DNA of 64,000 nucleotides, taken from the IMG/VR virus record IMGVR_UViG_3300045284_000309; one strand, given 5' to 3'. Under the pieces are notes generated by a model, which did no database searches, was not told where the DNA came from, and saw nothing but the letters and a program-made list of their open reading frames with translations. The stretch's first letter is position 1. The number at the start of each line of letters is the position of its first letter. Positions 43,680-60,868 of this stretch are shown piece by piece. This DNA is from an uncultured virus (IMG/VR IMGVR_UViG_3300045284_000309) (lineage: Duplodnaviria; Heunggongvirae; Uroviricota; Caudoviricetes). The translations under genes were made by a program, and so were the position numbers.

Positions 43680-44407
43680 GACACCCTCACCGGCAAAATC
43701 CACAGTGAACGCGCAGAGAAATTGAAAGTATTTGGGACTCCAGCGGCGTTGATTGCGGCCAAGATAAGCTGTTGACCTTGGTTTGCCGTGATGATCGACT
43801 CTGAAAAAAGTTGGTAATTCCTTGTATTTGCCATGGTACCATCGGCGAAATCTGCCGAATCACCAACCGGCCCGGTAGTTTGGTTGTAGATCTGGACTGA
43901 TGAAATAAACGCACCAGGCACACACGAGGCAATGCAGGCGAACCCGGCCTGGTAGCGGCCGGTGCGCGGAAAGAATACAGTCGGCGTACCTGGAAGCCCC
44001 TGCCAGCTACTGCCCAGAGCCAGCGGATTACTTCCTCCCGGTTGGCTCAAGATTTTCGCCCCACCGACGAATTCCCATTTGTACGCATCGCCCGTATGAC
44101 CGGCGTTGTAGCGGAACCGCAACTGGTACGTCGGATTGGAAATTGAGTCCACCAGGATATGCTCCATGCCATCGGCCGGACTAGCCGGAAGGCTCGTGCC
44201 GTAACTGGGTGAAGTTGTTGGTGGTGCCCAAGGCGTCGGAGAATCCGTTGTCGGCGCTACGCACAGATAGGTGACACCGTTGTAAACCACGATGTCGCCG
44301 TCTGTGTAATTTCCAGCGGCCCAGTCGCCACGATATCTGAAATCTGGCATCGGGCCAGGGCCAACAGGAACCCATTTTGTAGCTGCGGGGCTAGGAATGG
44401 TACTCAT
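43676..44407 (-). CDS. Fibre-like protein
   Basis: YRGDW...YTDGDIVVYNGVTYLCV carbohydrate-binding-like motif; TSLPASPADG. Confidence 0.7.
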   Translation of the reverse strand: MSTIPSPAATKWVPVGPGPMPDFRYRGDWAAGNYTDGDIVVYNGVTYLCVAPTTDSPTPWAPPTTSPSYGTSLPASPADGMEHILVDSISNPTYQLRFRYNAGHTGDAYKWEFVGGAKILSQPGGSNPLALGSSWQGLPGTPTVFFPRTGRYQAGFACIASCVPGAFISSVQIYNQTTGPVGDSADFADGTMANTRNYQLFSESIITANQGQQLILAAINAAGVPNTFNFSARSLWILPVRVS

Positions 44408-45438
44408 GGTGGCCCAAACGCAATCCAGTTGATTCGGACAACCCAGTTCGTGAGCAAGGCACCACCTACGCAGTTGCGAAGCTCCGGAACCCAATAGGTA
44501 TCGTAATTTCCACGAGTGCCGATAGTGAACTGGGCGGCATTCGCGTCACCATTTATTCCAACCACTCCGTAAGCAGGGCCACCAAACGGGACTGGGTAAC
44601 CAATTGTGCAGAGTCCTGCGCTGTCACTCTGCATGACGTTTGAGCCGTACTGGACTTTTGCGTTCGCGCCGTAAGTGTTGACACCGCCTGAAATATCGGC
44701 AGGTGTAATTGGTGCCCACACTGCCGCACCGCCAACGCCTTTGATCCACTGCCCGTTGACAACGGGTGGAATTTGTATCCACGAGCCGGACGACCAGGCG
44801 GTTGGTGCAATTCCAACGGTGCCGTTTACGACGCAGACGTAGGTGATTCCGTCAGGGCCAATTACATAGTCGCCGTCGTTGTACGTCGTCGCGGGATTGT
44901 ACGCGCCAACGTATTGCATTCCACCTGAGCCACCGCCTGAGCCTCCTCCACCGCCAGTGTAATACGTGAAGGCGACTCGCACGTCGGCGTTGTTACTCGG
45001 AAGCGCTCCCGTGAAGCTGTCGCATTCAACGGGGAACGTGATCCAGGTTCCATTGTCGATTGGAGCGGCTGTAATTGTGTAGCGACCGACCTTGCTGGCG
45101 TCGTTCTGATCCTGGACGACGATGTTGTCACCGATTCCCGCATTCGTGAAAACGTTCGTCCAATCGACGCCCGAGTACGTCGTCTTGTTCACGTTGATCT
45201 GAGTCGCGGAATTCCAGTCGGCCGCGTTGAGGCCGAGCCTGCCGGATGTAGCCGCAGTAGTCTGGCTCGTTGTAAATCGCCACGACTGAAGAAGCGTCGT
45301 GCTCAGGCCAGAGACATCATCGGCTGAAATTTGATCCCAGGTCGGCCCGGAAATCGTGGATTTCAGAAACTTCCCTGGATCCGCAGGAGGGATTCCCCGA
45401 AGTGCGCCTAACCCGTTTGTCGTTTCCGTCGTGCTCAT
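44404..45438 (-). CDS. Fibre-like protein
   Basis: YVGAYN..TYNDGDYV..GITYVCV; C-terminal VQYG..YPVPF..INWIAFG (gp53/H-lectin-like). Confidence 0.7.
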   Translation of the reverse strand: MSTTETTNGLGALRGIPPADPGKFLKSTISGPTWDQISADDVSGLSTTLLQSWRFTTSQTTAATSGRLGLNAADWNSATQINVNKTTYSGVDWTNVFTNAGIGDNIVVQDQNDASKVGRYTITAAPIDNGTWITFPVECDSFTGALPSNNADVRVAFTYYTGGGGGSGGGSGGMQYVGAYNPATTYNDGDYVIGPDGITYVCVVNGTVGIAPTAWSSGSWIQIPPVVNGQWIKGVGGAAVWAPITPADISGGVNTYGANAKVQYGSNVMQSDSAGLCTIGYPVPFGGPAYGVVGINGDANAAQFTIGTRGNYDTYWVPELRNCVGGALLTNWVVRINWIAFGPP

Positions 45439-46049
45439 TCGGTAATTTCAGCTTCCTTCGGCTCTGATGCGGTGGTCAGGAGGTTCTCAAGCTGCTCGAT
45501 CACCTGTGCAGCCTGCTCCTGGACTTCAGGGGAAGCTTTCCGTAGTTGCTCGATGATCCCGTCGTCCGTGAAAACCGTGCGGTTCTCGTTGACCTGAAGC
45601 CGTTCCGACTTGGTGGCCTTGCCGAGGCCAGCGCGGTCAAGAATTTCACCAGCGGCCTGAAGGACGATCTTGTCGTCTTCGGCAGAGCGCATGATGTCAA
45701 CCAGGGTCTGCACTGCTTCGATCATGTAATCCTGGAGGAGGTCAAGCGCGGCGGCAGGGAGAGCGGCCCTGAGCATCACGAGCTTCTCTGAGACGGCCGG
45801 ATCGTTGAGCAATTCCGCGATCTGGCTCAGTCCGACATTGAGGATGCGGGCGATCTGCTGTTTTTCATAGCCAGCGATCCTGAGCACGACAACGATGTCG
45901 ATTACGTGATCGCGCTCGCCCGGAAGGAATTTCCGAGAGAGCGTCAGGTTCTTCTTGTACCGACGCCGGATCTTGTCGGCTTCGCGTGATTTCGCTTTGG
46001 CCCGGACTTCCGGCGATCCATTTCCTTTTCTGTAATACTGTGTGGGCAT
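45435..46049 (-). CDS. HTH protein, putative terminase small subunit
   Basis: GYEKQQIARILNV HTH; AVQTLVDIM..LQAAGEILDRAG. Confidence 0.6.
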   Translation of the reverse strand: MPTQYYRKGNGSPEVRAKAKSREADKIRRRYKKNLTLSRKFLPGERDHVIDIVVVLRIAGYEKQQIARILNVGLSQIAELLNDPAVSEKLVMLRAALPAAALDLLQDYMIEAVQTLVDIMRSAEDDKIVLQAAGEILDRAGLGKATKSERLQVNENRTVFTDDGIIEQLRKASPEVQEQAAQVIEQLENLLTTASEPKEAEITE

Positions 46050-46050
46050 T

Positions 46051-47754
46051 TTACGCTCCTGAGATGATCGATTTGTTCATCGCAGATGAAAGTGCGGAAG
46101 GGATCTGAAGCTGCGGGCTTTGAATTGCGGCGACCGAGGCGAACATCCCTGCGTGATGCCAGTGGTCTGCATTTCTGTTCTTCCTCCAGCGGGCTACAAC
46201 GTTCCCTCTGAGGTTCTCCTCCTCCACCCTCACCATCTGCGTCAGTTGATGGTAGAGGCCGTTGTACGGCTTCCCAGGCATCTCCTCGCCAAGCTCTCTC
46301 GCGTCCATCGGAAAGACGGTCACACCGTCGATCATGTCGCGGATGAAACCGTCGAGCGCCATCGTCTTGTCGATGGTCACGTAGCCAGGCTCTCCATATT
46401 TCAGGATGCTGAAATTTGCGGCTTCGTGGGCTTGAGGACGGTCGTCTGAGAATCCGATCCAGAGTCGTCCGTGGTATTTCTGAGCAAGATCGTAACTCTT
46501 GCTTTTTTCAGGGTGCGCATCGATCACTCCTACCCACGATGAGAGAGACATGAGGAATTTGTCGAGATCATCCCACTTGCGGAACGTTTTCAGGTTCCAC
46601 AGCATTTTCCTTTTGTTCTGGCCGAAGTGCCAGCACCAGACGTGAATGACAGTGCCAACGTCGATCCCGACCGAGACGGAGGAATTCGGAAGCCCGCCGA
46701 TCTTGTAGCCCGGTGCCCTGATCTTGTCGAGAAGCTCCGGTGTAATTCTGTCGCCCGAGGCCGTGTAGGGCAGGCCCATGTTTTGATTCCAGAAGCTCCG
46801 GAACATCCGCTCGTCTCTCTGACCCTTGAAATATCCTTGCATGATCTCACGCAAGGGCTGGGTCGGAGAGTTGAACTGTGAAATGTGATAGCCACGGATC
46901 TTCCCGTCGAGGCGCATCGGAGTCCAGCGGCCGTTCGCGTTCAAGCCCGCTCTCTCGTTGTCGGAGATTTCACGATGGCAGAACGCGCACTCAAGGACGC
47001 ATTCGTCGGCGGTGTCACCGAGCTTCAGGTTTGAGTAGTCGAGCGAGGACTCCGTGAAATTCAGAACCTGAAATCTGCCGCATCCGGGACAAGGGACTTC
47101 CCAACGGTGCTGATCGGAGTATTCCCAGGCGTCATCGCCATAGACCCCGTAGCCATCGACGGTCGGAGTCGAGAGAATCACGATCCTTTTGAACGTCGAG
47201 CCATCCATGCGGTGGCGGGCATCGGGGAGATTTTCCTCAACCATGTGATCGCGCTCATCCCAGACCTCGAAATCGACAGGGACTTCCTGAAGCTCGCGGA
47301 GGATGTTCGTCCCTCGGATGTAGAAATTCACTCCGTCGATGGTCTGCTTATGGAGGCGGTTGTCCACTGAGGCGAATTTCATGGAAAGCTGGGGGTTGCT
47401 CTCGATGATGGGGTCGATTCTGGCTTGAACAAACGGGACTGCTCCTGTTTTCAGGGGCAGGAGGTAGAGTCCGTTCAACCGGCGCTCTGCGACGTTGTGC
47501 AAGCTCTTGGTCAGAAAGGTGACCGTGAAGGCCATCTGAGCGGCCTTCGGAATTACAATCTCCGGGCTGTAATCCCGGATCACCTGGCGGACGTACTCTC
47601 GACCTGTAAGGCTGAATGGCTTCCCATCCACCTTCAATTCCATACCGACGGCCCACTCGTCCGGCCTGGCCATCGAGCGGAGAGATGAAAATGAGGGAGG
47701 GGTTGACGCCTGGGGTTCGCTGGAACGCTTCCTACGTGAGGAAACCGGCGACAT
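46051..47754 (-). CDS. Terminase large subunit (lambda GpA-type)
   Basis: PKAAQMAFT, WDERD, LSTPT, VPCPGCG..CAFC, GYHISQF, GIDVG, ADHWHHA. Confidence 0.93.
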   Translation of the reverse strand: MSPVSSRRKRSSEPQASTPPSFSSLRSMARPDEWAVGMELKVDGKPFSLTGREYVRQVIRDYSPEIVIPKAAQMAFTVTFLTKSLHNVAERRLNGLYLLPLKTGAVPFVQARIDPIIESNPQLSMKFASVDNRLHKQTIDGVNFYIRGTNILRELQEVPVDFEVWDERDHMVEENLPDARHRMDGSTFKRIVILSTPTVDGYGVYGDDAWEYSDQHRWEVPCPGCGRFQVLNFTESSLDYSNLKLGDTADECVLECAFCHREISDNERAGLNANGRWTPMRLDGKIRGYHISQFNSPTQPLREIMQGYFKGQRDERMFRSFWNQNMGLPYTASGDRITPELLDKIRAPGYKIGGLPNSSVSVGIDVGTVIHVWCWHFGQNKRKMLWNLKTFRKWDDLDKFLMSLSSWVGVIDAHPEKSKSYDLAQKYHGRLWIGFSDDRPQAHEAANFSILKYGEPGYVTIDKTMALDGFIRDMIDGVTVFPMDARELGEEMPGKPYNGLYHQLTQMVRVEEENLRGNVVARWRKNRNADHWHHAGMFASVAAIQSPQLQIPSALSSAMNKSIISGA

Positions 47755-47814
47755 TGGCCCTACGAGTAGGGACTGGGCTGGGGGCGAAAATGGAGCAAGC
47801 TGAGAAGTCTAACG

Positions 47815-47852
47815 AAAAAAGGGCCGAGCCTGGAATTACCCAGACCCGACCC
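47815..47852 (-). terminator. Intrinsic terminator upstream of the terminase gene
   Basis: GGGTCGGGTCTGG..CCAGGCTCGGCCC followed by TTTTTT. Confidence 0.75.
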
Positions 47853-48064
47853 AGTTCCAGTCCGTGCCGTCTGACCGCGAGGAGAAGCGCCGTCTGACGA
47901 GGGGATCCTAGCAGATGGAGCGAAGCTCGCCCAACGTACTCCTTCTATATAGGAGGAGGATAAAGAAGGATGAAATTAGAAGGGGGCAGGTTCCCTTCAC
48001 GAGCAGCGGACGGATGTGGTTTGGTGCTCATGTCGGGAACCTGCTGGGGCTGAGCATATAGAGA

Positions 48065-48280
48065 CTAGCTGCTTTTCAGGTGCCCGCCTTTCTTGTAGAT
48101 CGAGTTGGCCTTCTGGCGGACTGTATTTCCTGTTCCTTTCTCCTCGGCCTTGGCTATGAAAATCCGGGTGCCCTCCTGGTAGCCGTACTCTGAGATGAAA
48201 TTCTTGAAGGCTTTCTGAGTGCCTCTGGGTTGGGCTGAAATCAGGAAAGGCAGGCGCGGGGTTTTCTTTCTGGTTTTCAT
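48065..48280 (-). CDS. Basic hypothetical protein
   Basis: AGGAGG RBS; 71 aa, Lys/Arg-rich. Confidence 0.7.
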   Translation of the reverse strand: MKTRKKTPRLPFLISAQPRGTQKAFKNFISEYGYQEGTRIFIAKAEEKGTGNTVRQKANSIYKKGGHLKSS

Positions 48281-48354
48281 TTTCTCCTCCTGGGCCAGGT
48301 GAGGACGAGTGCGCAGGCGAGGCAGAACACGAGCAGGATGATGAGGACGGTCAC
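48277..48354 (-). CDS. 25-aa TM peptide
   Basis: MTVLIILLVFCLACALVLTWPRRRK; overlaps both neighbours by 4 nt. Confidence 0.55.
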   Translation of the reverse strand: MTVLIILLVFCLACALVLTWPRRRK

Positions 48355-48587
48355 TTGGGCGGCGGGAGGATCTTTGTGATTTCAGTGTCCTCTAGCTCGT
48401 CCGTGAGGAACCAGCCGACGATCTTGTTGAGCCGTTTTCCCATCTCTTGACATTCGGGGTCTTGTTGAATTTGAAGCCAATGGGAGATCATTTCAGAAGC
48501 ACCCATGAGACGGCCGACGTAGAAAGGAAAATGAGGGTCTTGCTGAAGATCTTCTAGGTCGCGCTGTTTTCTTCTTCGTCTCATCAT
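48351..48587 (-). CDS. Hypothetical protein
   Basis: Probable start MMRRRRKQ just after the upstream stop. Confidence 0.6.
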   Translation of the reverse strand: MMRRRRKQRDLEDLQQDPHFPFYVGRLMGASEMISHWLQIQQDPECQEMGKRLNKIVGWFLTDELEDTEITKILPPPK

Positions 48588-48591
48588 GGGG

Positions 48592-48807
48592 TCATGAAAG
48601 GGGGAAATTAGGCGTCTGGTCGAAATTGATGAAATATTCAAAGCCGTCCACGAGTTTTTCATCCGGTGGTAGCACTCGGCCGGTCTTTGTTTCTTGAATA
48701 TGGCTCGTGAAATTGATTCCCCAGCAATTTTGGAGAGACTGCCGGATTGATTCTGGCGTCTCTCCAGGCTCGATCTGAAATACACCGAGAGGGTACAGCT
48801 TGATCAT
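48592..48807 (-). CDS. Hypothetical protein
   Basis: ATGA-coupled 71-aa ORF. Confidence 0.6.
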   Translation of the reverse strand: MIKLYPLGVFQIEPGETPESIRQSLQNCWGINFTSHIQETKTGRVLPPDEKLVDGFEYFINFDQTPNFPLS

Positions 48808-49061
48808 GAGGCTTTTTCCTGGAGAGTCGTGCGCTGGAGGACTTGCAGGGCGATGTCGAGATCATGCAAAGCCCTGGCGTAGTTTTCAGAAGCACCAGGA
48901 GAGGGCGATTGCCGCTTGTCCTTCGAGGCTTTGAAGGCGGTGTGGGCTTTCTTGACGTTTTCAGATGCGTCCTGGTAGTCATTTTGTGGATTTCGCTGGC
49001 CGGATAGGACGCTATCCACTCTGCGAGCGATCTCCCGTTCGTCACTGTTCATGTGAATCAT
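48804..49061 (-). CDS. Hypothetical protein
   Basis: First ORF of the leftward unit after the non-coding gap. Confidence 0.55.
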   Translation of the reverse strand: MIHMNSDEREIARRVDSVLSGQRNPQNDYQDASENVKKAHTAFKASKDKRQSPSPGASENYARALHDLDIALQVLQRTTLQEKAS

Positions 49062-49930
49062 GGTAGCAAAAGGGTCAAATCCCAGATTTTTTCCCCAAAA
49101 ACAATTTCCTCGGATGTAATTCTAAATAGACCCAGGGTTCCAGTGTAATTGCAAATAGTCCCTGGGCCTCGGTTATGAAAATACGGTGTTCATAAGTGCC
49201 CCGCTGAACGAGCCGCCGGTACATCTCGTGAAATTCACATTCTGATAACATTTTTTTGGCTCAACCATGCGGTTGTAAAGACGAAATTCATGATTCTTTA
49301 CAATTTCATTACGACCAAAGTGCCTGCAAATCGATGGTTTCGGTCGGAGGACGGGATTTCAACACGGGGATTGCCAGTGCGTTACCGGGAATGAAAACAC
49401 CCGCTCTGGGAAGGGTGAAATTCGAGGGTTCTGGACGGGGTTTCCAGAGGGTGTTGCCAGTGATGAAATTGGTAAGTGTCCTAGGGTCGTAACCCTGATG
49501 TTTCCTAGGGATTCAGGTAGGGATTTCGGGGGATTGCCCGGAGAGGTGAGACTACGTTTCCCGATTTCAGGGTTCAGGAGATTTCACTACGGCCGTCCTA
49601 GGGGTTCCCATAGGGTCGCAGAGGGTTCTATCAAGTCTTCCGGCCCGGTAGGTTTCGATGAAATCTAGGGGGGATTTCAGGGGTTCTGGCGCATGGATAG
49701 ACGGTAACGACCCTAGGCTACTTTCAGGGGTTCGGCGCCGATGAAATCTAGCCTAGTTGCCGACTGGGGAAACAGGGGTTCTAGGACGGTGAAATCCGGT
49801 TATCGTCCTACGGTCGTTTCCAGATACCGGATCCGTAGGGGGGATGAAATTCGGAAACCCATCGGGGGATACCGGCCGGAATCTTCGCGCATGGAAAACA
49901 CGGGGAAGACTTGACACGGTACAATGCAGC
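49062..49930. other. Long non-coding divergent region with short imperfect repeats
   Basis: No credible ORF; TTTCAGGGGTTC x2, GATGAAATCTAG x2, several CCTAGGG. Confidence 0.6.
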
Positions 49931-51463: not shown

Positions 51464-52423
51464 CTGAATTACACTGGATTGGGAACCCCTTCCGACTAGA
51501 AGGGATTTTCCAATGACTAAGAGCAATGAGAGCTACTTTCAGATCGATTGGTTCGATTACAAAAAGATCTTGAAATCGACCGTCCTAGACGGTAAGGCTC
51601 CGACACTGAATAACGCAAACACGACGCGGAGTTTCGCAACTCATGTTGCGGATTCCGGTAGCTGGCGCGGCTATTCAGATGGGCAATTGAAGCGGTGGAT
51701 TTCAGAGGGTTACACTCCCCCTGAAATGGTCGGTGGTTTGAGTAACCTCATCCCCCCGATGCGTGAAAAGAGTCGCACGATTTGGAACGAAGATGGCGAT
51801 GAATTTCATGTTGACCGCGCGATGAGTGGAACGGACAATTTCATGTCCTCTCAGTCTCGCCGGGAGGTTATCCCCGGTCTAAAGATTGAGGCCGGAATCA
51901 TGTTTAGTTCGGCCACGAATCACACTGTCGTCAACAATTACACTATCTGGCTTTGCAAGGTATTGTTCTCACTCGAACAAAGTGGAATTGATACTCAGCT
52001 TACGCTCGATTTCCCGTCATGGGAAAGTGTAAATGACTCGTCGCGGAAACGTGCCGGAACGTCAGGCGCGACCCTATATCACTCAGTAGTCAGAGTGAAA
52101 AAAGAGGGTGAGATTTCCGATTTCAAGTCATGGTCGGCGATGGTATCCCCGGCAGCGCTGCGCAACTTCGGTTTCGGGGCTATCTGCCTACATGCGAATG
52201 AAATAAATGGAACCCCTAGCGGTTCGATGGGTAGGGGGGTTCCGGAACGTCACGAATGGAAACTTGTATGGAATGAGGAGAGGCGAGTTTTGATCGTTGA
52301 AAACGCCTACACTTCTTCATCGTTTCCGGAATCCAAAATGACGGCCGACTTGAAAGCCGTCATGCAAAAGGTTAGCGGCAAGACTCAGTAATTTCATCGG
52401 GGTTTCCATCCAGTGTAATTCGG
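51464..52423 (+). repeat. Inverted repeat (51464-51489 / 52399-52423) enclosing the partner gene
   Basis: CTGAATTACACTGGATTGGGAACCCC / GGGGTTTCCATCCAGTGTAATTCGG: 25 pairs including 2 G-U, plus 1 bulge. Confidence 0.9.
51513..52391 (+). CDS. AAA+ partner protein (vWA/CobT-like, divergent)
   Basis: Follows the MoxR-like ATPase; GDEFHVDRAMSG, LEQSGI, VKK, P...R..GF pattern. Confidence 0.6.
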   Translation: MTKSNESYFQIDWFDYKKILKSTVLDGKAPTLNNANTTRSFATHVADSGSWRGYSDGQLKRWISEGYTPPEMVGGLSNLIPPMREKSRTIWNEDGDEFHVDRAMSGTDNFMSSQSRREVIPGLKIEAGIMFSSATNHTVVNNYTIWLCKVLFSLEQSGIDTQLTLDFPSWESVNDSSRKRAGTSGATLYHSVVRVKKEGEISDFKSWSAMVSPAALRNFGFGAICLHANEINGTPSGSMGRGVPERHEWKLVWNEERRVLIVENAYTSSSFPESKMTADLKAVMQKVSGKTQ

Positions 52424-52441
52424 ATCTATCTTCAAGATTTC

Positions 52442-52477
52442 AGGGCGGCTCTCGCGAGAGGGTCGCCCTTTTTTTTC
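52442..52477 (+). terminator. Intrinsic terminator
   Basis: AGGGCGGCTCTC-GCGA-GAGGGTCGCCCT followed by a T run. Confidence 0.9.
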
Positions 52478-52500
52478 ACGATTTCACGAATTACCTTCCG

Positions 52501-52524
52501 CCCGGTGCCAGCCGGGTTTTTTTT
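52501..52524 (+). terminator. Second tandem terminator
   Basis: CCCGG..CCGGG followed by T8. Confidence 0.7.
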
Positions 52525-53078
52525 GTGCTTTCATGTTGTCAGAACGGGCAATTACCAATTACAGGATCCTGTTGCCAAGCCTGGCGATTATCGATTTCAA
52601 GGATCGAATGGGAAACCGATTTCAGGGTGGAATCCGTTTTCAATCCAAAGTGAAATGTTCGCATGTCGGTGCTCGTGAAATTTCACAATCGATTCGTCGC
52701 GGGTTGTCTGGCAATGAAATCCTGGTTATTCTGGGCCGGTGGGCGGGAGTTGGTGGGCCTCGTGGGGAAGCCGTGAAATCGCTTCTACCGTGCTCAGGCT
52801 CGTGGCCAGGTGGGAACCCTCACCAGACGGCCGGAAGCCGTTAGACGGGCTTAGAGAGGCTTGCAGCCATGCGGGTTTGCGAAGCACTTGCCCCTGTGAG
52901 GCTCTGTAAGCCGTTCTAAGAGGCTGGGTTGGCCGGATGACCTGGGAGTCGCATAAGGTGGTCAGAGGCGCTTAGAGAGGCTTACAGGGGCTTGAAAAAG
53001 GTGGGCGGCATGAGCGCTGGCGTCCGGCGTGAAACTCGGCGTGGAAAGGTGCCGCACTCGTTTTGATAGTTGGGCGCG

Positions 53079-53112
53079 AAAAATAAAAACCCCCGGCGTG
53101 AGCCAGGGGTTT
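53079..53112 (-). terminator. Intrinsic terminator of the leftward early region
   Basis: AAACCCCTGGC..GCCGGGGGTTT followed by TTATTTTT. Confidence 0.8.
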
Positions 53113-53138
53113 CGATGAAGCCGGGATGCAGAACGGGC

Positions 53139-53660
53139 TTAGATCAGCCGCGCTCCGGACGGCCTTCTGAAAAAGCCGAAGTGCGGATTATCGGGAGAGG
53201 GCTTGAGCGTGGCGGTGAAAACGATGTTACGGCCGTGAAGCTCGGAGGGCATCTTGATTTCGGCCGACTCGTGAATGTTCGCCGGGACGGTTCCCCAAAC
53301 CTTGTTACCGTCGATCAGGCGCACCGTCATTTTCAGCGAGTCGCCGTAATCGCTGCTGTGCCACTTGGTCGAAAGGATCTCGCCGCTGAATTCCCGCTTG
53401 CCTGCCACGAGATCCGGCGCACCCTGTGAAATCTCCTCGTCGGCCTTCTTCGTCTCCGCATGATGCTTCGCGGTGCGCATCCACTTTTCAGTTGCGGCCT
53501 TCTGCCCTTTAGTGAGCGAGCCGAACGTCTTGACCGCCGCCTGCATGTCGCGCAGAAAATCGTGGCAGTCGTCACCTTGTGAAAACAGCCAGGAGACAAG
53601 CTCGATATTTTCGAGCCGCCACTCATTCGTATCCTGCATCCTCTGTTCGTGCCGTGTCAT
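53139..53660 (-). CDS. Hypothetical protein with C-terminal OB-like region
   Basis: F..DM......GSLT.GQ motif; KVWGTVP..FGFFRRP; own promoter and RBS. Confidence 0.75.
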   Translation of the reverse strand: MTRHEQRMQDTNEWRLENIELVSWLFSQGDDCHDFLRDMQAAVKTFGSLTKGQKAATEKWMRTAKHHAETKKADEEISQGAPDLVAGKREFSGEILSTKWHSSDYGDSLKMTVRLIDGNKVWGTVPANIHESAEIKMPSELHGRNIVFTATLKPSPDNPHFGFFRRPSGARLI

Positions 53661-53697
53661 GAGTCAAATTTCCTTTCGCGTGTCGGAAGCTGCGACC

Positions 53698-53726
53698 ACC
53701 ATACAGGCAATTTCCTTTCCTGTCAA
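53698..53726 (-). promoter_or_regulatory. sigma70-type promoter
   Basis: TTGACA-17-TATGGT. Confidence 0.8.
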
Positions 53727-53754
53727 GAGCAATCTTGAAGGTTTCCTAAGAACG

Positions 53755-53779
53755 AAAAGAGCCGCCTTGCGGCGGCTCT
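53755..53779 (-). terminator. Intrinsic terminator
   Basis: AGAGCCGCC-GCAA-GGCGGCTCT followed by TTT. Confidence 0.75.
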
Positions 53780-53807
53780 CGTGGAGCGGTGGAGCGTGGG
53801 AGGGATT

Positions 53808-54044
53808 TCAGAAGCCGCCCTCCATGAGATGACCGCCGTAGGTTCCGATCTTTTCATCGCGAGCCGCGAAGTGATCGGACGTTCCCATGACGGCCTTGTA
53901 AAACTTGCCACGGTCGAAGCGGGGATTGTCCTGGGCGAACGTGTCAGCGAGTGAAAGCGTGAGGCACCACACGACGCCGGTTTTGTCCTGGGCGAACGCG
54001 GGAGCGAGAGTAGCGGCGATCTTGGCGTAATCCTTCATGGTCAT
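53808..54044 (-). CDS. Hypothetical protein
   Basis: MTMKDYAKIA..LADTFAQDNPRFDRGKF; AAGGAG RBS. Confidence 0.75.
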   Translation of the reverse strand: MTMKDYAKIAATLAPAFAQDKTGVVWCLTLSLADTFAQDNPRFDRGKFYKAVMGTSDHFAARDEKIGTYGGHLMEGGF

Positions 54045-54079
54045 TGCAATTTCTCCTTGTTGTCGGAAGCGATGGAACC

Positions 54080-54109
54080 ACCATAGCACGAATTTCCTTC
54101 CGGTGTCAA
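54080..54109 (-). promoter_or_regulatory. sigma70-type promoter
   Basis: TTGACA-18-TATGGT with TG extension. Confidence 0.8.
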
Positions 54110-54427
54110 GGGCGATTGCAAATTACCGTTCCGGCGTCTGAGAGAGCCGCATCGGGATTGCTGCAAAGCTTCGGAGCGCTGCAAAGCCATTCGCGCCAGG
54201 TGCCGACGAAGTGCGAGCCGTACGGATGAATTTCAGACCAGCAATGCCAGCCGAGCTTCATCGCCTGGATGACGTGAAAAAGAGTCATAGCAGGCCCGCT
54301 ACATACAAGCTCAGGACTGCAATGATGAGCGAGAGCAATCCGAGTGCGAGCGATTGCGTTGTCTTGTTTCCCGGCCTCACGCAAACAAGGAAAAGAGCGG
54401 TGAGACAGGAAAGAACGATGGCGATTT

Positions 54428-54622
54428 TCATGACCGGCCCTTCATGTCAGAGAGTGAAATTACAGCCTCGCGCATTGCCTCATGCTCCGCTGCCGCGCTT
54501 GACGGCTCCAAGAGCATCACCGGCTTTTTGCGCTGCCGGTAGCGCCAGTCGATTTCAGCCACGACGCCGACCATGACGACGGCTGCGACAACAACCAGGA
54601 GAGCGGCGAGGGAGGCGGTCAT
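54428..54622 (-). CDS. Small membrane protein
   Basis: MTASLAALLVVVAAVVMVGVV hydrophobic N-terminus; ATGA-coupled. Confidence 0.6.
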   Translation of the reverse strand: MTASLAALLVVVAAVVMVGVVAEIDWRYRQRKKPVMLLEPSSAAAEHEAMREAVISLSDMKGRS

Positions 54623-54792
54623 GCCCGCCCCCCTGAAAACGCCTTTGGCGCTATCGCCGTGCTCGTGTCGATAACGAGCCAATCGCCCTTGATGTTGTAA
54701 TTCGCAAAATCAAGCGCGGCATTCTCGCTTGAAAACGGGCCGACTAGCTCCGGAAGATCATACCCTCCGGTGAGTAGGATGAACCAGGTCAT
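54619..54792 (-). CDS. 57-aa hypothetical protein (not in ORF track)
   Basis: MTWFILLTGG..LVGPFSSENAA; ATGA overlaps at both ends. Confidence 0.6.
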   Translation of the reverse strand: MTWFILLTGGYDLPELVGPFSSENAALDFANYNIKGDWLVIDTSTAIAPKAFSGGRA

Positions 54793-55199
54793 GCCCGCCC
54801 CCCGTGCTTCTTTGAAATTGTCGGCATCGACCGGCGAACCTGCTCGCTTGAAAACGAGTAGGTATGCATGAAATCGCGCTCGCGCCGTGTGAGCTTGGCA
54901 GTCGTCTTCCTGATCGCGGCTCGCGCAACGCGGGCGAGATCGGCCAGGTATTCCATGCGGATCTGAAAAGCCAGAGACGGCTTCGGAAGCTCGCCGTTTC
55001 CCTTGACCGGCTCGCGGTCGATGTGTGAAAACGTCTCGCGGTTCTCGATCACGCCGAGAAGGTCGAAGCGCACCGGCTGCTTAGCGGCCAGCTTGCGGGC
55101 CTTCTGAGCCGCCAGGTGAAGCTCGCAGGCGTAGACGAAACCGCCGCCGTACGTGAAGGTGCATCCGCACCGCTTGCCTTTGACCATTAGCTCTACCAC
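54789..55199 (-). CDS. Hypothetical protein
   Basis: CGC..CELH; GAAGGA RBS. Confidence 0.7.
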   Translation of the reverse strand: MVELMVKGKRCGCTFTYGGGFVYACELHLAAQKARKLAAKQPVRFDLLGVIENRETFSHIDREPVKGNGELPKPSLAFQIRMEYLADLARVARAAIRKTTAKLTRRERDFMHTYSFSSEQVRRSMPTISKKHGGRA

Positions 55200-55234
55200 T
55201 TGAATTTCCTTCCTGTCGGAGTGCTATCTCCAAC

Positions 55235-55264
55235 AGCGTATCAGACCCTGGGCCTATTGCGCAA
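55235..55264 (-). promoter_or_regulatory. Promoter with CCCAGGG spacer box
   Basis: TTGCGC-18-TACGCT; shares CCCAGGGTCTGATAC with 57786-57814. Confidence 0.6.
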
Positions 55265-55284
55265 GGGCAGTTAGGAAATTCGTA

Positions 55285-55710
55285 TCAGGGGAAGGGAAAC
55301 GGCTCTCTCGCCCCGCTGTGGCAACCGGAAGCTTGAGAGCCGTACCCTCCCCCCTTTTCCCCCCAGCCCCTCCGGAACGGGTCGGTGAACCCGGAGGACG
55401 GAGGGAACCTAGCAGCTTTTCAGGGCAGATACAACTTCCCCTGGTTGGGCGGTGTTTGACTTCTGTCCTCTGAGTCCGGGGTTTGGAGAGAAAGCGCCCT
55501 GTTCGCATATGGAATTTCAGCCCCCAGCCGGTCATCGTGGCGTAAACCGCTCGATCTGCCACCGGCCACCGTCTTTTACGATTTTGCCCATACCTACGGT
55601 GCCTGCTTGAAATTCCTTATCTGTCGGCCCGACTCTCTCGGAGGTTGTCGGGCATCAATTGAAATTCATGGTGAGCCTCGCGTGTTGCGGGTTTATTCTT
55701 GTCGGAAGTG
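55285..55710 (-). ncRNA. Candidate ~430-nt structured non-coding RNA
   Basis: Own promoter at 55716-55744; several stems; no convincing ORF. Confidence 0.45.
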
Positions 55711-55715
55711 ATGCG

Positions 55716-55744
55716 ACCCTACAGGATCGCTCAGAGCGTGTCAA
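55716..55744 (-). promoter_or_regulatory. sigma70-type promoter
   Basis: TTGACA-17-TAGGGT. Confidence 0.7.
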
Positions 55745-55747
55745 GGC

Positions 55748-55825
55748 AAAAAGAAAGGGCCGGGGGAGTCTCACCTTGAACCCCGGCCCTTCCGCCTAGC
55801 TCCTTCCGACAAGAAAGGATTTCGT
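55748..55825 (-). ncRNA. Candidate trans-acting antisense sRNA
   Basis: Promoter at 55831-55859; seed AUCCUUUCUUGUCGGAAGG; 11-bp terminator stem (55755-65 / 55781-91) plus U-tract. Confidence 0.7.
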
Positions 55826-55830
55826 TGACC

Positions 55831-55859
55831 ACGGTAGCAGCTTACGGGGATTGTGTCAA
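55831..55859 (-). promoter_or_regulatory. sigma70-type promoter for the sRNA
   Basis: TTGACA-17-TACCGT with TGn extension, overlapping the 3' end of ORF 55842-56117. Confidence 0.75.
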
Positions 55860-56117
55860 CCCCTGCTGCTCGATCACATGCAGAGCGGCCGTGAAACCGT
55901 CCAGCCACAGGGATGCAAGCGTAGCGGCGGCTCCGACTGTCGGCCGGATTTCAGGGGATGCCATCAGGATCATTCTGGCCCGCTGAGTCGCGCAGTATTG
56001 AGCCGATTCCATATCCACACCCATCGCCTCGATCCCCTTGAAAAGATCCTGGGAGGCGTCGGCCAGGGCATCATTCATGCGGACGGCCGCAAAGATTTCC
56101 TCGCCGGTGATTTTCAT
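55842..56117 (-). CDS. Hypothetical protein
   Basis: ATGA-coupled 91-aa ORF. Confidence 0.7.
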   Translation of the reverse strand: MKITGEEIFAAVRMNDALADASQDLFKGIEAMGVDMESAQYCATQRARMILMASPEIRPTVGAAATLASLWLDGFTAALHVIEQQGLTQSP

Positions 56118-56467
56118 GACTTGCGCTCCATGTTGAAGCTCTCGGCCAGGCCAGAAGTCAGCGCCTGAATTTCAACGAGCATACGCTCGTCATCCGTGAG
56201 CGTACGCCAGCCTACCGGCTCCGGTGAAAACATCGTTCGGTCAATGGCCACGACATCGCCAATTGAAATCGAGCGGCCTTCATAGCCCTTGGGCGGCGTC
56301 ATGACTTCATCGACCCGCTGAAAACGACGCCAAACGTCGTCAACGGTGAAGCTCCGATCCGGGAAAGCGTCTTGGCTGTCCTCGACCCAGACAAGCTTGT
56401 AATTCGCGCTGTCCTTGAACCCCATGCAGGTCTGAACAAACGGGGCTTGATAGATTGCGATTTTCAT
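56114..56467 (-). CDS. YodL-like domain protein
   Basis: IYQ..YKLVW..F...P.GYEGRSISIGDVV..VGW. Confidence 0.8.
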   Translation of the reverse strand: MKIAIYQAPFVQTCMGFKDSANYKLVWVEDSQDAFPDRSFTVDDVWRRFQRVDEVMTPPKGYEGRSISIGDVVAIDRTMFSPEPVGWRTLTDDERMLVEIQALTSGLAESFNMERKS

Positions 56468-56599
56468 TTAGGCTTCCTTTGCGCACGGCTCGCAAACGCA
56501 AGCCGTGGTGAGTAGGGGAGTCTTGAAAAAGAACCAGTTGCGCAGGGTGAAGGTGCCGCACCCATCGCATCGCGCTCTTTTGTTACAGAGTTTCCACAT
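56468..56599 (-). CDS. 43-aa Zn-finger-like protein
   Basis: MWKLCNKRARCDGCG...CVCEPC; GAAAGGG RBS. Confidence 0.65.
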   Translation of the reverse strand: MWKLCNKRARCDGCGTFTLRNWFFFKTPLLTTACVCEPCAKEA

Positions 56600-56600
56600 T

Positions 56601-57008
56601 TCAACCCTTTCGCTGTCGGAGGTTCTTGCACTTGCGGCATTGCCTTGTGCCGGTGTCCGGACGAATGTAGACGTTTTCATCCGAAAGCAAATGGCCATTG
56701 ACGCAATGCGTTTGTCGAGCCTTCATTGCCACGAAATTTTCACCACGTAGAAGGTTCTCCTGGTGCGTCACAGGCTCGCAGTGAAAAGGATTGGCGCAAG
56801 CTCGCTGTCTGCACAGATGGTCAAGCTCCAAGTCTTCCAGGATCGGCCCGATAACAATTTCATACATGACTCGGTGAGTCAGACACGTTCGCCCTTCGAC
56901 GCTTATCGTGCCGTAGCCCCTGTCAGACTTCGCGCCGCGCCATAGCCAGCAGTCCCATTCGCCACTGGCTACTGAAATTCCCTCCACTATACGAGCTTCC
57001 AGATTCAT
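56601..57008 (-). CDS. HNH endonuclease
   Basis: CWLWRG..GYG..HRVMY..LDHLC..CANPFHCEPVT.QEN; THCVNGH..RQCRKC. Confidence 0.92.
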   Translation of the reverse strand: MNLEARIVEGISVASGEWDCWLWRGAKSDRGYGTISVEGRTCLTHRVMYEIVIGPILEDLELDHLCRQRACANPFHCEPVTHQENLLRGENFVAMKARQTHCVNGHLLSDENVYIRPDTGTRQCRKCKNLRQRKG

Positions 57009-57048
57009 CAATGGCACCTTGCCCGCTTCTCGCAGAGCTTCCACATTT

Positions 57049-57426
57049 TCAGTAGTCGCTCGGTCGGAGGATTGTGGTCGTTTCGCGCAGCCAGACCTTA
57101 TCCGTCCAGGCCGCATCTGAAATTACCCAAAGCTCGATACCCTTGACCGTGAACGAGCTTACGATCCTTGCGCCGGATTTCACGGAAAGATCGTTCTGCC
57201 TTGCGTCGTGGGCATCGACCTCGCCCCAATCGCCGTTGACGTGGCGAAGGAGAAGACCCTGCATCGCTGTCTGAAATTCTTGCGTGTCCGGGATTGCATC
57301 GACAATCTCGTTGTAGGCTCCGCTCGCCATCGTGACGCCAGACTTGAGGATCGAAAACCGCGAGCCTGAGACGACGCTGGAATTGCGGCGGATTGCCCTG
57401 GGATCGTTCGGCCCTAGAACAGTCAT
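57049..57426 (-). CDS. Conserved mobile-element-type hypothetical protein
   Basis: LLRHVNGDWGEV..D..N..G.RI.S.F..LWVI..TTILRPSDY. Confidence 0.75.
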   Translation of the reverse strand: MTVLGPNDPRAIRRNSSVVSGSRFSILKSGVTMASGAYNEIVDAIPDTQEFQTAMQGLLLRHVNGDWGEVDAHDARQNDLSVKSGARIVSSFTVKGIELWVISDAAWTDKVWLRETTTILRPSDY

Positions 57427-57749
57427 GATGCGAACACCTTGCGGCACTCGCCCGCGATCTGAAATTCGTTGCAGCGCTCTTGCGAGCCAGCGGCACCGCA
57501 GACGTTGCAGACGACTTGACCGACCTCGGTCTGAAATGCTTCAAGCTCTCCGCGCTTCGTCGGAAACGCACCGTAGACGATGCCGGACGTGGAAACGAAA
57601 TACTCGTCCGCTTCGTCTTCGGTGTTGTAGGCCCACCATCCGGAATCGTACTGATAGCACGACGGATCGACGGGCACCCATGCGTCCAAGGCTAGCTCGA
57701 CGGTAGCACCGTCCTTGAGCGCCGCCTTGACCGTTGCGCCTGTATCCAT
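57423..57749 (-). CDS. Hypothetical protein
   Basis: GAGAGG RBS before ATG 57749; C-terminal Cys motif. Confidence 0.7.
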   Translation of the reverse strand: MDTGATVKAALKDGATVELALDAWVPVDPSCYQYDSGWWAYNTEDEADEYFVSTSGIVYGAFPTKRGELEAFQTEVGQVVCNVCGAAGSQERCNEFQIAGECRKVFAS

Positions 57750-57785: not shown

Positions 57786-57814
57786 AAGGTATCAGACCCT
57801 GGGATGATTGTCAA
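57786..57814 (-). promoter_or_regulatory. sigma70-type promoter with CCCAGGG box
   Basis: TTGACA-17-TACCTT. Confidence 0.8.
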
Positions 57815-60775: not shown

Positions 60776-60868
60776 GCTACCCGCCCCGCTCTCAGGAATC
60801 GAACCTGAGCCTCCACCGTATGTTTCTGGCGGCGCTCTACCTAGCTGAGCTAGAGCGGAGCGGGTAGC
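60776..60868 (-). ncRNA. tRNA-like RNA with aberrant 10-nt anticodon loop and acceptor stem extended to 16 bp
   Basis: TCCGCTC-TA-GCTC AGCTAGGTA GAGC-G-CCGCC AGAAACATAC GGTGG-AGGC-TCAGG TTCGATT CCTGA-GAGCGGG; no CCA. Confidence 0.8.

Follow-up and report, generated by a model that had tools for sequence, protein, structure and literature searches.

Positions 55285-55744 of the window, that is, of the 64,000 nucleotides (nt) of an uncultured virus of the Caudoviricetes (IMG/VR IMGVR_UViG_3300045284_000309) analysed in the present study, lie immediately downstream of a predicted small RNA (sRNA) gene on the minus strand and consist of two separate elements, an optional cassette and a retained double hairpin. 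The cassette carries a promoter and encodes a predicted RNA at 55710-55423, hereafter called the unit. We propose that the unit is a degenerate, still-transcribed early-gene cassette, contributing an extra promoter and a long untranslated leader, whose binding to the sRNA would be incidental, a plausible reading that we put forward tentatively. The first-pass annotation had taken the whole stretch for a decoy RNA that titrates the sRNA or for an independent structured RNA; a sponge or structured RNA remains unproven, and the structured part belongs to the separate, conserved element. The unit itself is characterized by its anatomy, its lack of coding signal, its lack of excess folding and its presence/absence polymorphism among strains.

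The strain-variable cassette and its predicted transcription

One RNA-library run (X13) and three DNA runs (X3, X4 and X8) were compared with the window over positions 53500-57500, and 40 of the 162 strain differences from the window were listed, none of those 40 lying inside the unit. In 3/3 DNA runs, a contig joined 55398 to 55744 through 24 other letters (depths of 11.4, 13 and 5.4 in X3, X4 and X8, respectively, with 79-255 nt on the sides of the joint). These 24 letters are the homologue of 55421-55398, and the real difference is thus the presence or absence of 322 nt at 55422-55743, the first base of which is the second base of the -35 hexamer of the unit promoter (Table 1). Unit-bearing contigs were present in X3 (55401-55822, depth 4.16) and X4 (55466-55722, depth 3.5) as well, indicating that both forms coexist. 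The dominant contigs of the three related DNA populations all lacked the unit and kept the sRNA gene, suggesting that the sRNA is independent of the unit. Among the differences listed, the changes in the sRNA of the deletion strains affected the terminator hairpin or the letters immediately 5' to it, and both hairpins of the double hairpin were kept in these strains. The unit copy in X3 differed from the window at 9 of 422 letters, and that in X13 by 5 letters and 4 gap letters over 246. Whole-cassette indels were also found nearby, at 54617-54786 (a 57-amino-acid (aa) open reading frame (ORF), missing from the X3 and X4 contigs, where 17 letters at the joint can be placed on either side) and at 56562-57011 (an HNH endonuclease with a PHROG match, absent from the X4 and X8 contigs), indicating that this part of the genome evolves by acquiring and losing cassettes.

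The promoter TTGACA-17-TAGGGT reported by the first-pass annotation is present on the minus strand. The pattern TTGACA-N16-18-TAnnnT occurs eight times in the window, compared to 0.52 expected, and none of 100 shuffles reached eight; seven of the eight matches are on the minus strand, and six lie within 53.7-58.5 kb. Because of this excess, the unit promoter is predicted to be a real promoter and a member of the phage's own early promoter family. Five early promoters, with TTGCGC allowed at one, have a TCCGACA box 9-15 nt downstream, and the unit promoter conforms to the definition of the family (TTGACA, 16-18 nt, TAnnnT and a leader box 9-15 nt further on). A generic sigma-70 scan did not list the unit promoter, since its -10 hexamer, TAGGGT, agrees with TATAAT at only 3/6 positions. 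Judging from the promoter, transcription would start at about 55709-55712, taken here as ~55710.

The RNA-library contigs come from a single strandless library (X13) at a depth of ~3, in which DNA carry-over is possible. Five short contigs were found on the 4-kb stretch compared, one of which, 55444-55689, lies on the unit, and its upper end is ~20 nt downstream of the predicted start; parts of the stretch that no contig covers were given no weight as evidence. The upper ends of two further contigs, 53673 and ~57752 (the latter if colinear beyond the compared stretch), bear a similar relation to the starts predicted at ~53691 and ~57779 from the promoters at 53726 and 57814, just as 55689 does to the start at ~55710 from the promoter at 55744, all three ends falling 18-27 nt downstream of the predicted starts. 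This pattern of contig ends, which is hard to obtain from DNA carry-over, supports a start near 55710, where the first-pass annotation had placed it. Furthermore, the contig 55186-55353, which carries 23 additional letters upstream and a shorter variant of a G-rich tract described below, crosses hairpin 2 of the double hairpin and the promoter of the downstream 136-aa gene. It begins >125 nt upstream of the predicted own start of that gene (~55228), which fits read-through from the unit across the hairpins.

No U-run terminator of the unit's own was found after it, either in a terminator scan or by inspection of the sequence. A Rho-dependent end was considered, and the C/G ratios of 1.2-1.9 in parts of the unit were not distinctive. 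Smith-Waterman alignment of the unit to the neighbouring cassettes scored 31.5, not clearly above shuffles (22.2 +/- 2.8, maximum 33.5), and a tblastx comparison with the rest of the window returned noise only. The sequence AAGGAAATT was considered as a DNA operator and rejected, GGAAATT being a genome-wide ribosome-binding-site context with 37 copies on the gene strand.

Table 1 Features of the stretch 55285-55744 and its surroundings (positions in the window)
Feature	Position	Strand	Remarks
Predicted sRNA gene	55748..55859	-	Promoter TTGACA-17-TACCGT at 55859-55831; RNA ~55824-55748; from sequence and fold
Early-family promoter of the unit	55716..55744	-	-35 TTGACA 55744-55739, 17-nt spacer, -10 TAGGGT 55721-55716; pattern family
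Strain-variable cassette	55422..55743		322 nt; present or absent; borders TGCCT and TGCCCT
Box 1, leader box CUUCCGACAAGAA	55696..55708	-	13-nt perfect complement of the sRNA seed; predicted duplex -25.3 kcal/mol
Small hairpin CCCGAC...GUCGGG directly 5' of box 2	55628..55652	-	Seen in minimum free energy folds
Box 2, full leader-type translation initiation region CCGACAGAUAAGGAAUUUCAA, followed by GCA	55604..55627	-	Shine-Dalgarno sequence (SD); predicted duplex -21.7 kcal/mol
Marginal three-way junction	55507..55620	-	Fold of 55628-55500: z -1.85, 8/200 shuffles as good
Hairpin 1 of the double hairpin	55357..55407	-	Pyrimidine-rich arm against GGAGG-rich arm; kept in deletion-form contigs
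Hairpin 2 of the double hairpin	55287..55354	-	Imperfect stem of ~30 pairs, no U-run after it; z -4.6
Own promoter of the 136-aa gene	55235..55264	-	TTGCGC-18-TACGCT; 15 nt in common with the promoter at 57814
Downstream 136-aa gene	54789..55220	-	Leader box and SD UCCGACAGGAAGGAAAUU also complementary to the sRNA; predicted duplex -26.4 kcal/mol

Leader boxes, the sRNA and folding

The pattern CCGACA-N1-6-RAGG occurs 16 times in the window, compared to 2.2 expected, and 0/100 shuffles reached 16. In the region of 50-61 kb, the box precedes the start codons of ten genes at a fixed distance, eight on the minus strand (60769, 58935, 58504, 57769, 56619, 55219, 54066 and 53686) and two on the plus strand (50185 and 51492), in an extended layout of YUCCGACA, 2-5 nt, RAGG.., 3-9 nt and the start codon. 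Some copies have a promoter in front and others do not, and the box is therefore predicted to act at the RNA level, as part of an extended translation initiation region. Within the leader, the CUUCC of the box complements the GGAAG of the SD, so that a small hairpin may mask the SD.

Both boxes of the unit belong to this family. Box 1 (CTTCCGACAAGAA) is followed by AAUAAA where its paralogues carry AAGGAA, and neither an SD nor a start codon follows it. Box 2, with the core CCGACAGATAAGGAATTTCAA at 55627-55607, comes with a complete SD and the usual spacing, but its triplet at the position of ATG or GTG in seven paralogous leaders is GCA, consistent with the earlier statement that a second box is present without a properly spaced start codon.

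The predicted sRNA has its seed in a 5' hairpin with the loop UUGUC, followed by a canonical terminator with a U-run, and it is the exact antisense of the shared early-gene leader. The 13-nt perfect complementarity near the start of the transcript, on which the first-pass annotation based the decoy, is exact: box 1 at 55708-55696 matches 55803-55815 of the predicted sRNA in inverted orientation at 13/13 positions, as a target mimic would require, and box 2 is partly complementary. This complementarity does not, however, appear special to the unit, because 9 of the 13 bases are those of the family box CTTCCGACA; by our own estimate, the four extra complementary bases would arise by chance in one of ~12 boxes with a probability of about 5%. 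The predicted duplexes of the 5' region of the sRNA with 12 leader-type sites ranged from -21.6 to -33.3 kcal/mol, among which box 1 ranked 6th and box 2 11th, so that five real leaders are predicted to pair as well as or better than the unit. Among the 1453 non-overlapping sites below -14 kcal/mol on both strands of the window, box 1 was 15th. The best predicted partner, the sRNA's own antisense strand aside, was the leader of a 292-aa gene at 51487-51512 on the plus strand (21 nt with two mismatches, -33.3 kcal/mol). The proposed titration of the sRNA thus gained no sign of a preferred partnership from the predicted energies. Box 1 is accessible, with a mean unpaired probability of 0.59-0.75, and the SD of box 2 is mostly paired (unpaired probability of 0.16-0.19).

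Folding energies were compared with those of dinucleotide shuffles (100 each, and 200 for the three-way junction). The whole stretch of 476 nt at 55715-55240 gave a z-score of -1.43, with 5/100 shuffles as good. The predicted RNA within the variable cassette, 55710-55423, folded like its shuffles (z +0.07, 52/100 as good), and its last 98 nt, 55520-55423, folded worse than shuffles (z +1.75, 96/100). By contrast, none of 100 shuffles was as good as the retained 143 nt at 55422-55280 (z -3.2) or as hairpin 2 alone (z -4.6). All four stems listed by the first-pass annotation exist, but CUCCGG/CCGGAG and ACGGCUCUC/GAGAGCCGU belong to the double hairpin and not to the unit. In the marginal three-way junction of the unit, UGAAAUUCC, 88 nt downstream, is the pairing partner of the box 2 SD, and the arms of the closing stem are two inverted copies of a genome-wide motif, ATTTCA/TGAAAT; as this motif is over-represented throughout the genome, the junction is weak evidence of selected structure. 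Over the whole window, no Rfam family was found at the gathering threshold, and eight sub-threshold hits, mostly to microRNA-type hairpins, were obtained for 54700-56200, the best with 20.7 bits against a gathering score of 80.

The double hairpin at 55287-55407, retained in all strains, lies after the sRNA terminator and ahead of the next promoter and is probably a transcript-boundary or processing element. Hairpin 2 has the stem of an intrinsic terminator, but UGAUACGAAUUU follows it instead of a U-run, and it was not found in the terminator scan. As a plus-strand terminator, hairpin 2 was considered and rejected, the short T-run after it being deleted in strain variants. The G-rich tract at 55341-55370 on the minus strand, on the 5' side of hairpin 2 and between the two hairpins, varies in length among strains by deletions of 4-5 nt; it comprises the runs GGGG, GGGGGG, GGGGGG and GGG, with 14 nt fewer in the X13 contig, and could in principle form a G-quadruplex.

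Origin and possible function of the cassette

Considering these results, we propose the following scenario for the unit. An optional early cassette of 322 nt would have lost, or never had, its gene, while keeping an early-family promoter, a leader box at the 5' end of the RNA and a second complete leader with an SD and without a start codon. Transcription from ~55710 would yield an untranslated and essentially unstructured RNA that, having no terminator of its own, probably continues past the double hairpin and into the operon of the 136-aa gene. The cassette would then act as an extra upstream promoter with a leader of roughly 500 nt. Because both boxes belong to the family to which the sRNA is antisense, the RNA would bind the sRNA whenever both are present, as a by-product of shared ancestry and probably without a dedicated function, and because the family box is carried twice, the cassette would compete for the sRNA to some degree. 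The start-less leader fits a pseudogene, although no intact homologue or paralogue was found, most genes of the phage being orphans in any case.

Several observations weigh against this degenerate origin. Box 2 is a near-consensus leader of 21 nt, in which the start codon is two to three changes away from GTG or ATG and which no codon periodicity follows; neutral decay should have eroded box 2 too, and its preservation may indicate that the boxes are themselves under selection. In box 1, four bases complementary to the sRNA are added to those of the family box. Copies of the unit elsewhere differ from the window by 2-4%, indicating that the unit has survived in a compact genome while strains diverged. 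The searches revealed no intact homologous gene by which a pseudogene origin could be proved, and the alignment to the neighbouring cassettes described above gives no clear sign of one. Finally, the read-through is derived from low-depth contigs of one strandless RNA library.

The first three of these points lend some weight to a dedicated decoy, a strain-specific target mimic in which box 1, accessible, and box 2, weaker, would bind the anti-leader sRNA of the phage and thereby delay or buffer its action on the translation initiation regions of early genes. The 13/13 complementarity lies at the extreme 5' end of the predicted RNA in a mostly unpaired region, both boxes are untranslatable, box 2 is preserved despite lacking a start codon, and a promoter with a consensus -35 hexamer stands right behind the sRNA terminator; moreover, several samples have kept the unit at 96-98% identity, and RNA-library contigs cover it. 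However, the contig form with the higher depth lacks the unit and keeps the sRNA in 3/3 related DNA runs, the predicted duplex does not exceed those of real leaders in strength, most of the complementary bases are merely those of the family box, and the unit has no terminator and would carry ~290 nt of extra RNA without excess structure. We consider a dedicated decoy possible but doubtful, and we would give no greater credence to the phage-internal circuit to which it would belong, in which the sRNA shuts down or tunes about ten early genes and an optional, untranslatable two-box cassette titrates the sRNA. Somewhat less probable still is a cis-regulatory function, in which the unit would be the long 5' leader of the 136-aa operon and pairing of the sRNA with three boxes would control expression through premature termination, processing or a block of translation. 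The sRNA gene (RNA at 55824-55748), box 1, box 2 and a third box over the SD of the 136-aa gene follow one another in the same orientation within 650 nt on the minus strand, no terminator separates the unit from that gene, an RNA-library contig spans the hairpins and the start of the gene, and the accessibility of the gene's leader is predicted to be 0.20 in the long transcript compared to 0.33 from its own promoter. This difference is small, though, no attenuator-like alternative structures beyond chance were found, and the 136-aa gene has its own promoter, from which it would be expressed without the unit in the deletion strains.

A coding function of the unit is very improbable. Candidate small proteins are the 19-aa ORF MGKIVKDG, the 102-aa ORF at 55254-55562 and the mini-ORFs MNFN and MPDNLRESRADR; a frame of 120 codons is open, and GAGG stands 6 nt upstream of the start of the MNFN mini-ORF. 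Nevertheless, the GC content by codon position was flat over 55760-55400 (0.47-0.60 in all three phases) and reversed in the 102-aa ORF, compared to 0.72-0.85 at third and 0.38-0.50 at second positions in the 136-aa gene. The 102-aa ORF had 0 hits among 1.84 billion representative proteins, contains deletions of 5 nt (or 4+1 nt) in strain variants, lengths that are not multiples of three, and loses its start in the deletion strains. No homologue was found of the 40-codon frame containing MGKIVKDG, and the 19-aa ORF lacks a correctly spaced SD. The unit thus shows neither a spaced start, such as would be needed after box 2, nor codon periodicity nor a conserved product, in agreement with the first-pass annotation, which saw no convincing ORF here and had regarded translation of the region, for example conservation of the 102-aa or the 19-aa ORF, as a result that would overturn its RNA reading. 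Just as improbable is an independent structured RNA of a new family over the whole of 55285-55744. The 3' 143 nt do form a very stable double hairpin, which can still form despite the strain variation in the length of the G-rich tract, but the two parts are separable, strains without the promoter-bearing part keeping the hairpins, the promoter-bearing part has no excess stability, and no Rfam family reached its threshold.

Phage context and comparison with known systems

All 18 of the 18 public runs that contain the locus carry a soil label. Nearly all genes of the window are on the minus strand, and the locus lies within an early-type region of ~53.1-60.8 kb on that strand, built of small cassettes. 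The large terminase and two further proteins match those of cultured phages at 23-46% identity only, and Pfam and PHROG searches gave no family for most early proteins, showing that the phage is an orphan lineage; matches to known phages at this identity permit no assignment of a host or family. The nearest related record (G001) is 94% identical to window positions 44001-49081 and stops there, short of the locus. Homologous DNA of the locus was found neither in the viral_contigs, metagenome_contigs and genome_contigs collections nor, by blastn, among GenBank phages. Pattern searches were likewise unproductive: a 15-nt seed pattern matched 44 viral loci, none resembling the window, and the leader-box pattern 35 viral loci, none related to it; a 19-nt seed pattern matched two contigs of metagenome-assembled genomes (L083 and L084), both unrelated, and the 21-nt box 2 pattern one metagenome contig (L047), unrelated beyond the pattern itself. 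The neighbouring proteins had no relatives in viral_contigs. The 136-aa protein has a single homologue (P0002, 49% identity), and a search with the alignment of the two found no relatives in the same three collections. The promoters of the 136-aa gene and of a 118-aa gene share an identical 15-nt spacer/-10 segment (55238-55252 and 57789-57803), which points to cassette duplication.

Other features of the window were observed in passing. The hexamer ATTTCA/TGAAAT occurs in 285 copies on both strands (127 and 158), compared to ~20 expected from base composition, and TTTCA in 535 copies, compared to 89 expected; a purine precedes the hexamer in 235 of the 285 copies, and the 8-mers CAATTTCA, GAATTTCA and GATTTCAG have 42-45 copies each against ~1.3 expected. 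The hexamer is even along the genome and as dense inside genes, where it is read as Ile-Ser or Glu-Ile, as outside, and it looks like a DNA-level signal. A transfer RNA (tRNA)-like gene at 60783-60859 on the minus strand, for which ARAGORN calls a four-base anticodon, has an anticodon loop that appears enlarged to ~9 nt, typical-looking D and T arms and a flanking inverted repeat of 17 nt (60776-60792 / 60852-60868); the Rfam tRNA model did not match it even at E<=1. Between convergent terminators at 52392-53138, ~750 nt without a credible ORF hold inverted repeats of 22-27 nt (52890-52925 / 52966-52992) and the repeated motif GCCTCTCTAAGC, and may be an origin, attachment or packaging region. 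In X4, 31 nt at 54100-54130 are replaced by 63 other letters. A cysteine-rich ORF of 43 aa at 56468-56599 on the minus strand (MWKLCNKRARCDGCG...), whose family leader box lies within the HNH gene, right at its end, can easily escape length cut-offs, and its first codons are removed in the HNH deletion form.

Phage morons and accessory cassettes are inserts of promoter, gene and terminator between conserved genes. The unit resembles them in being a presence/absence insert with its own promoter, lying in a region of cassette turnover, after a terminator and ahead of the next transcription unit, but unlike morons it carries neither a gene nor a terminator. For a decoy function, the nearest functional analogues would be AgvB and AsxR, prophage-encoded anti-sRNAs of enterohaemorrhagic Escherichia coli described as mimicking the messenger RNA (mRNA) target of a host sRNA (PMC4104026). 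Like these, the unit would be a phage-borne non-coding RNA carrying a copy of the target of an sRNA seed and could block the seed by forming a duplex. According to the same account, the short sRNA AgvB ends in a Rho-independent terminator and targets GcvB of the host core genome (PMC4104026), whereas the unit has no terminator and faces the phage's own sRNA; its mimic sequence, moreover, is the common early leader box of the phage, and the likeness is one of sequence.

In phage P1, c4, icd and ant1/2 are reported to form one operon (PMC8198154). As with C4, a small antisense RNA gene here lies just upstream of target sites in the transcript of the downstream genes, and the gene order, with the sRNA gene upstream of complementary leader sites, agrees with this type. 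Unlike the c4-icd-ant operon as reported, the locus has a predicted promoter and terminator for the sRNA gene itself, a complementary box common to about ten genes on both strands, and an intervening unit that is optional among strains. SroC is described as a target-derived sponge of GcvB that is cut from mRNA (PMC4474525), suggesting that a sponge may be a piece of mRNA or leader bearing a target site and needs no dedicated gene; in comparison with SroC, the unit is known here from its sequence and from low-depth contigs. In the portions of the literature available to us, including those of a 2025 review (PMC12197685), no phage RNA that sponges the phage's own sRNA was seen.

If the decoy is real, the unit would offer a natural example of target mimicry by which a virus adjusts its own sRNA, and the strains with and without the cassette would provide a ready-made natural experiment; under the circuit outlined above, these strains would differ in the timing of early-gene shut-off. 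Even on the ordinary reading, as a degenerate cassette, the locus presents an orphan soil phage with one extended early leader (CCGACA..RAGG) and an adjoining sRNA that is its exact antisense, and sheds light on the evolution of the early region, in which entire promoter-leader cassettes are gained and lost.

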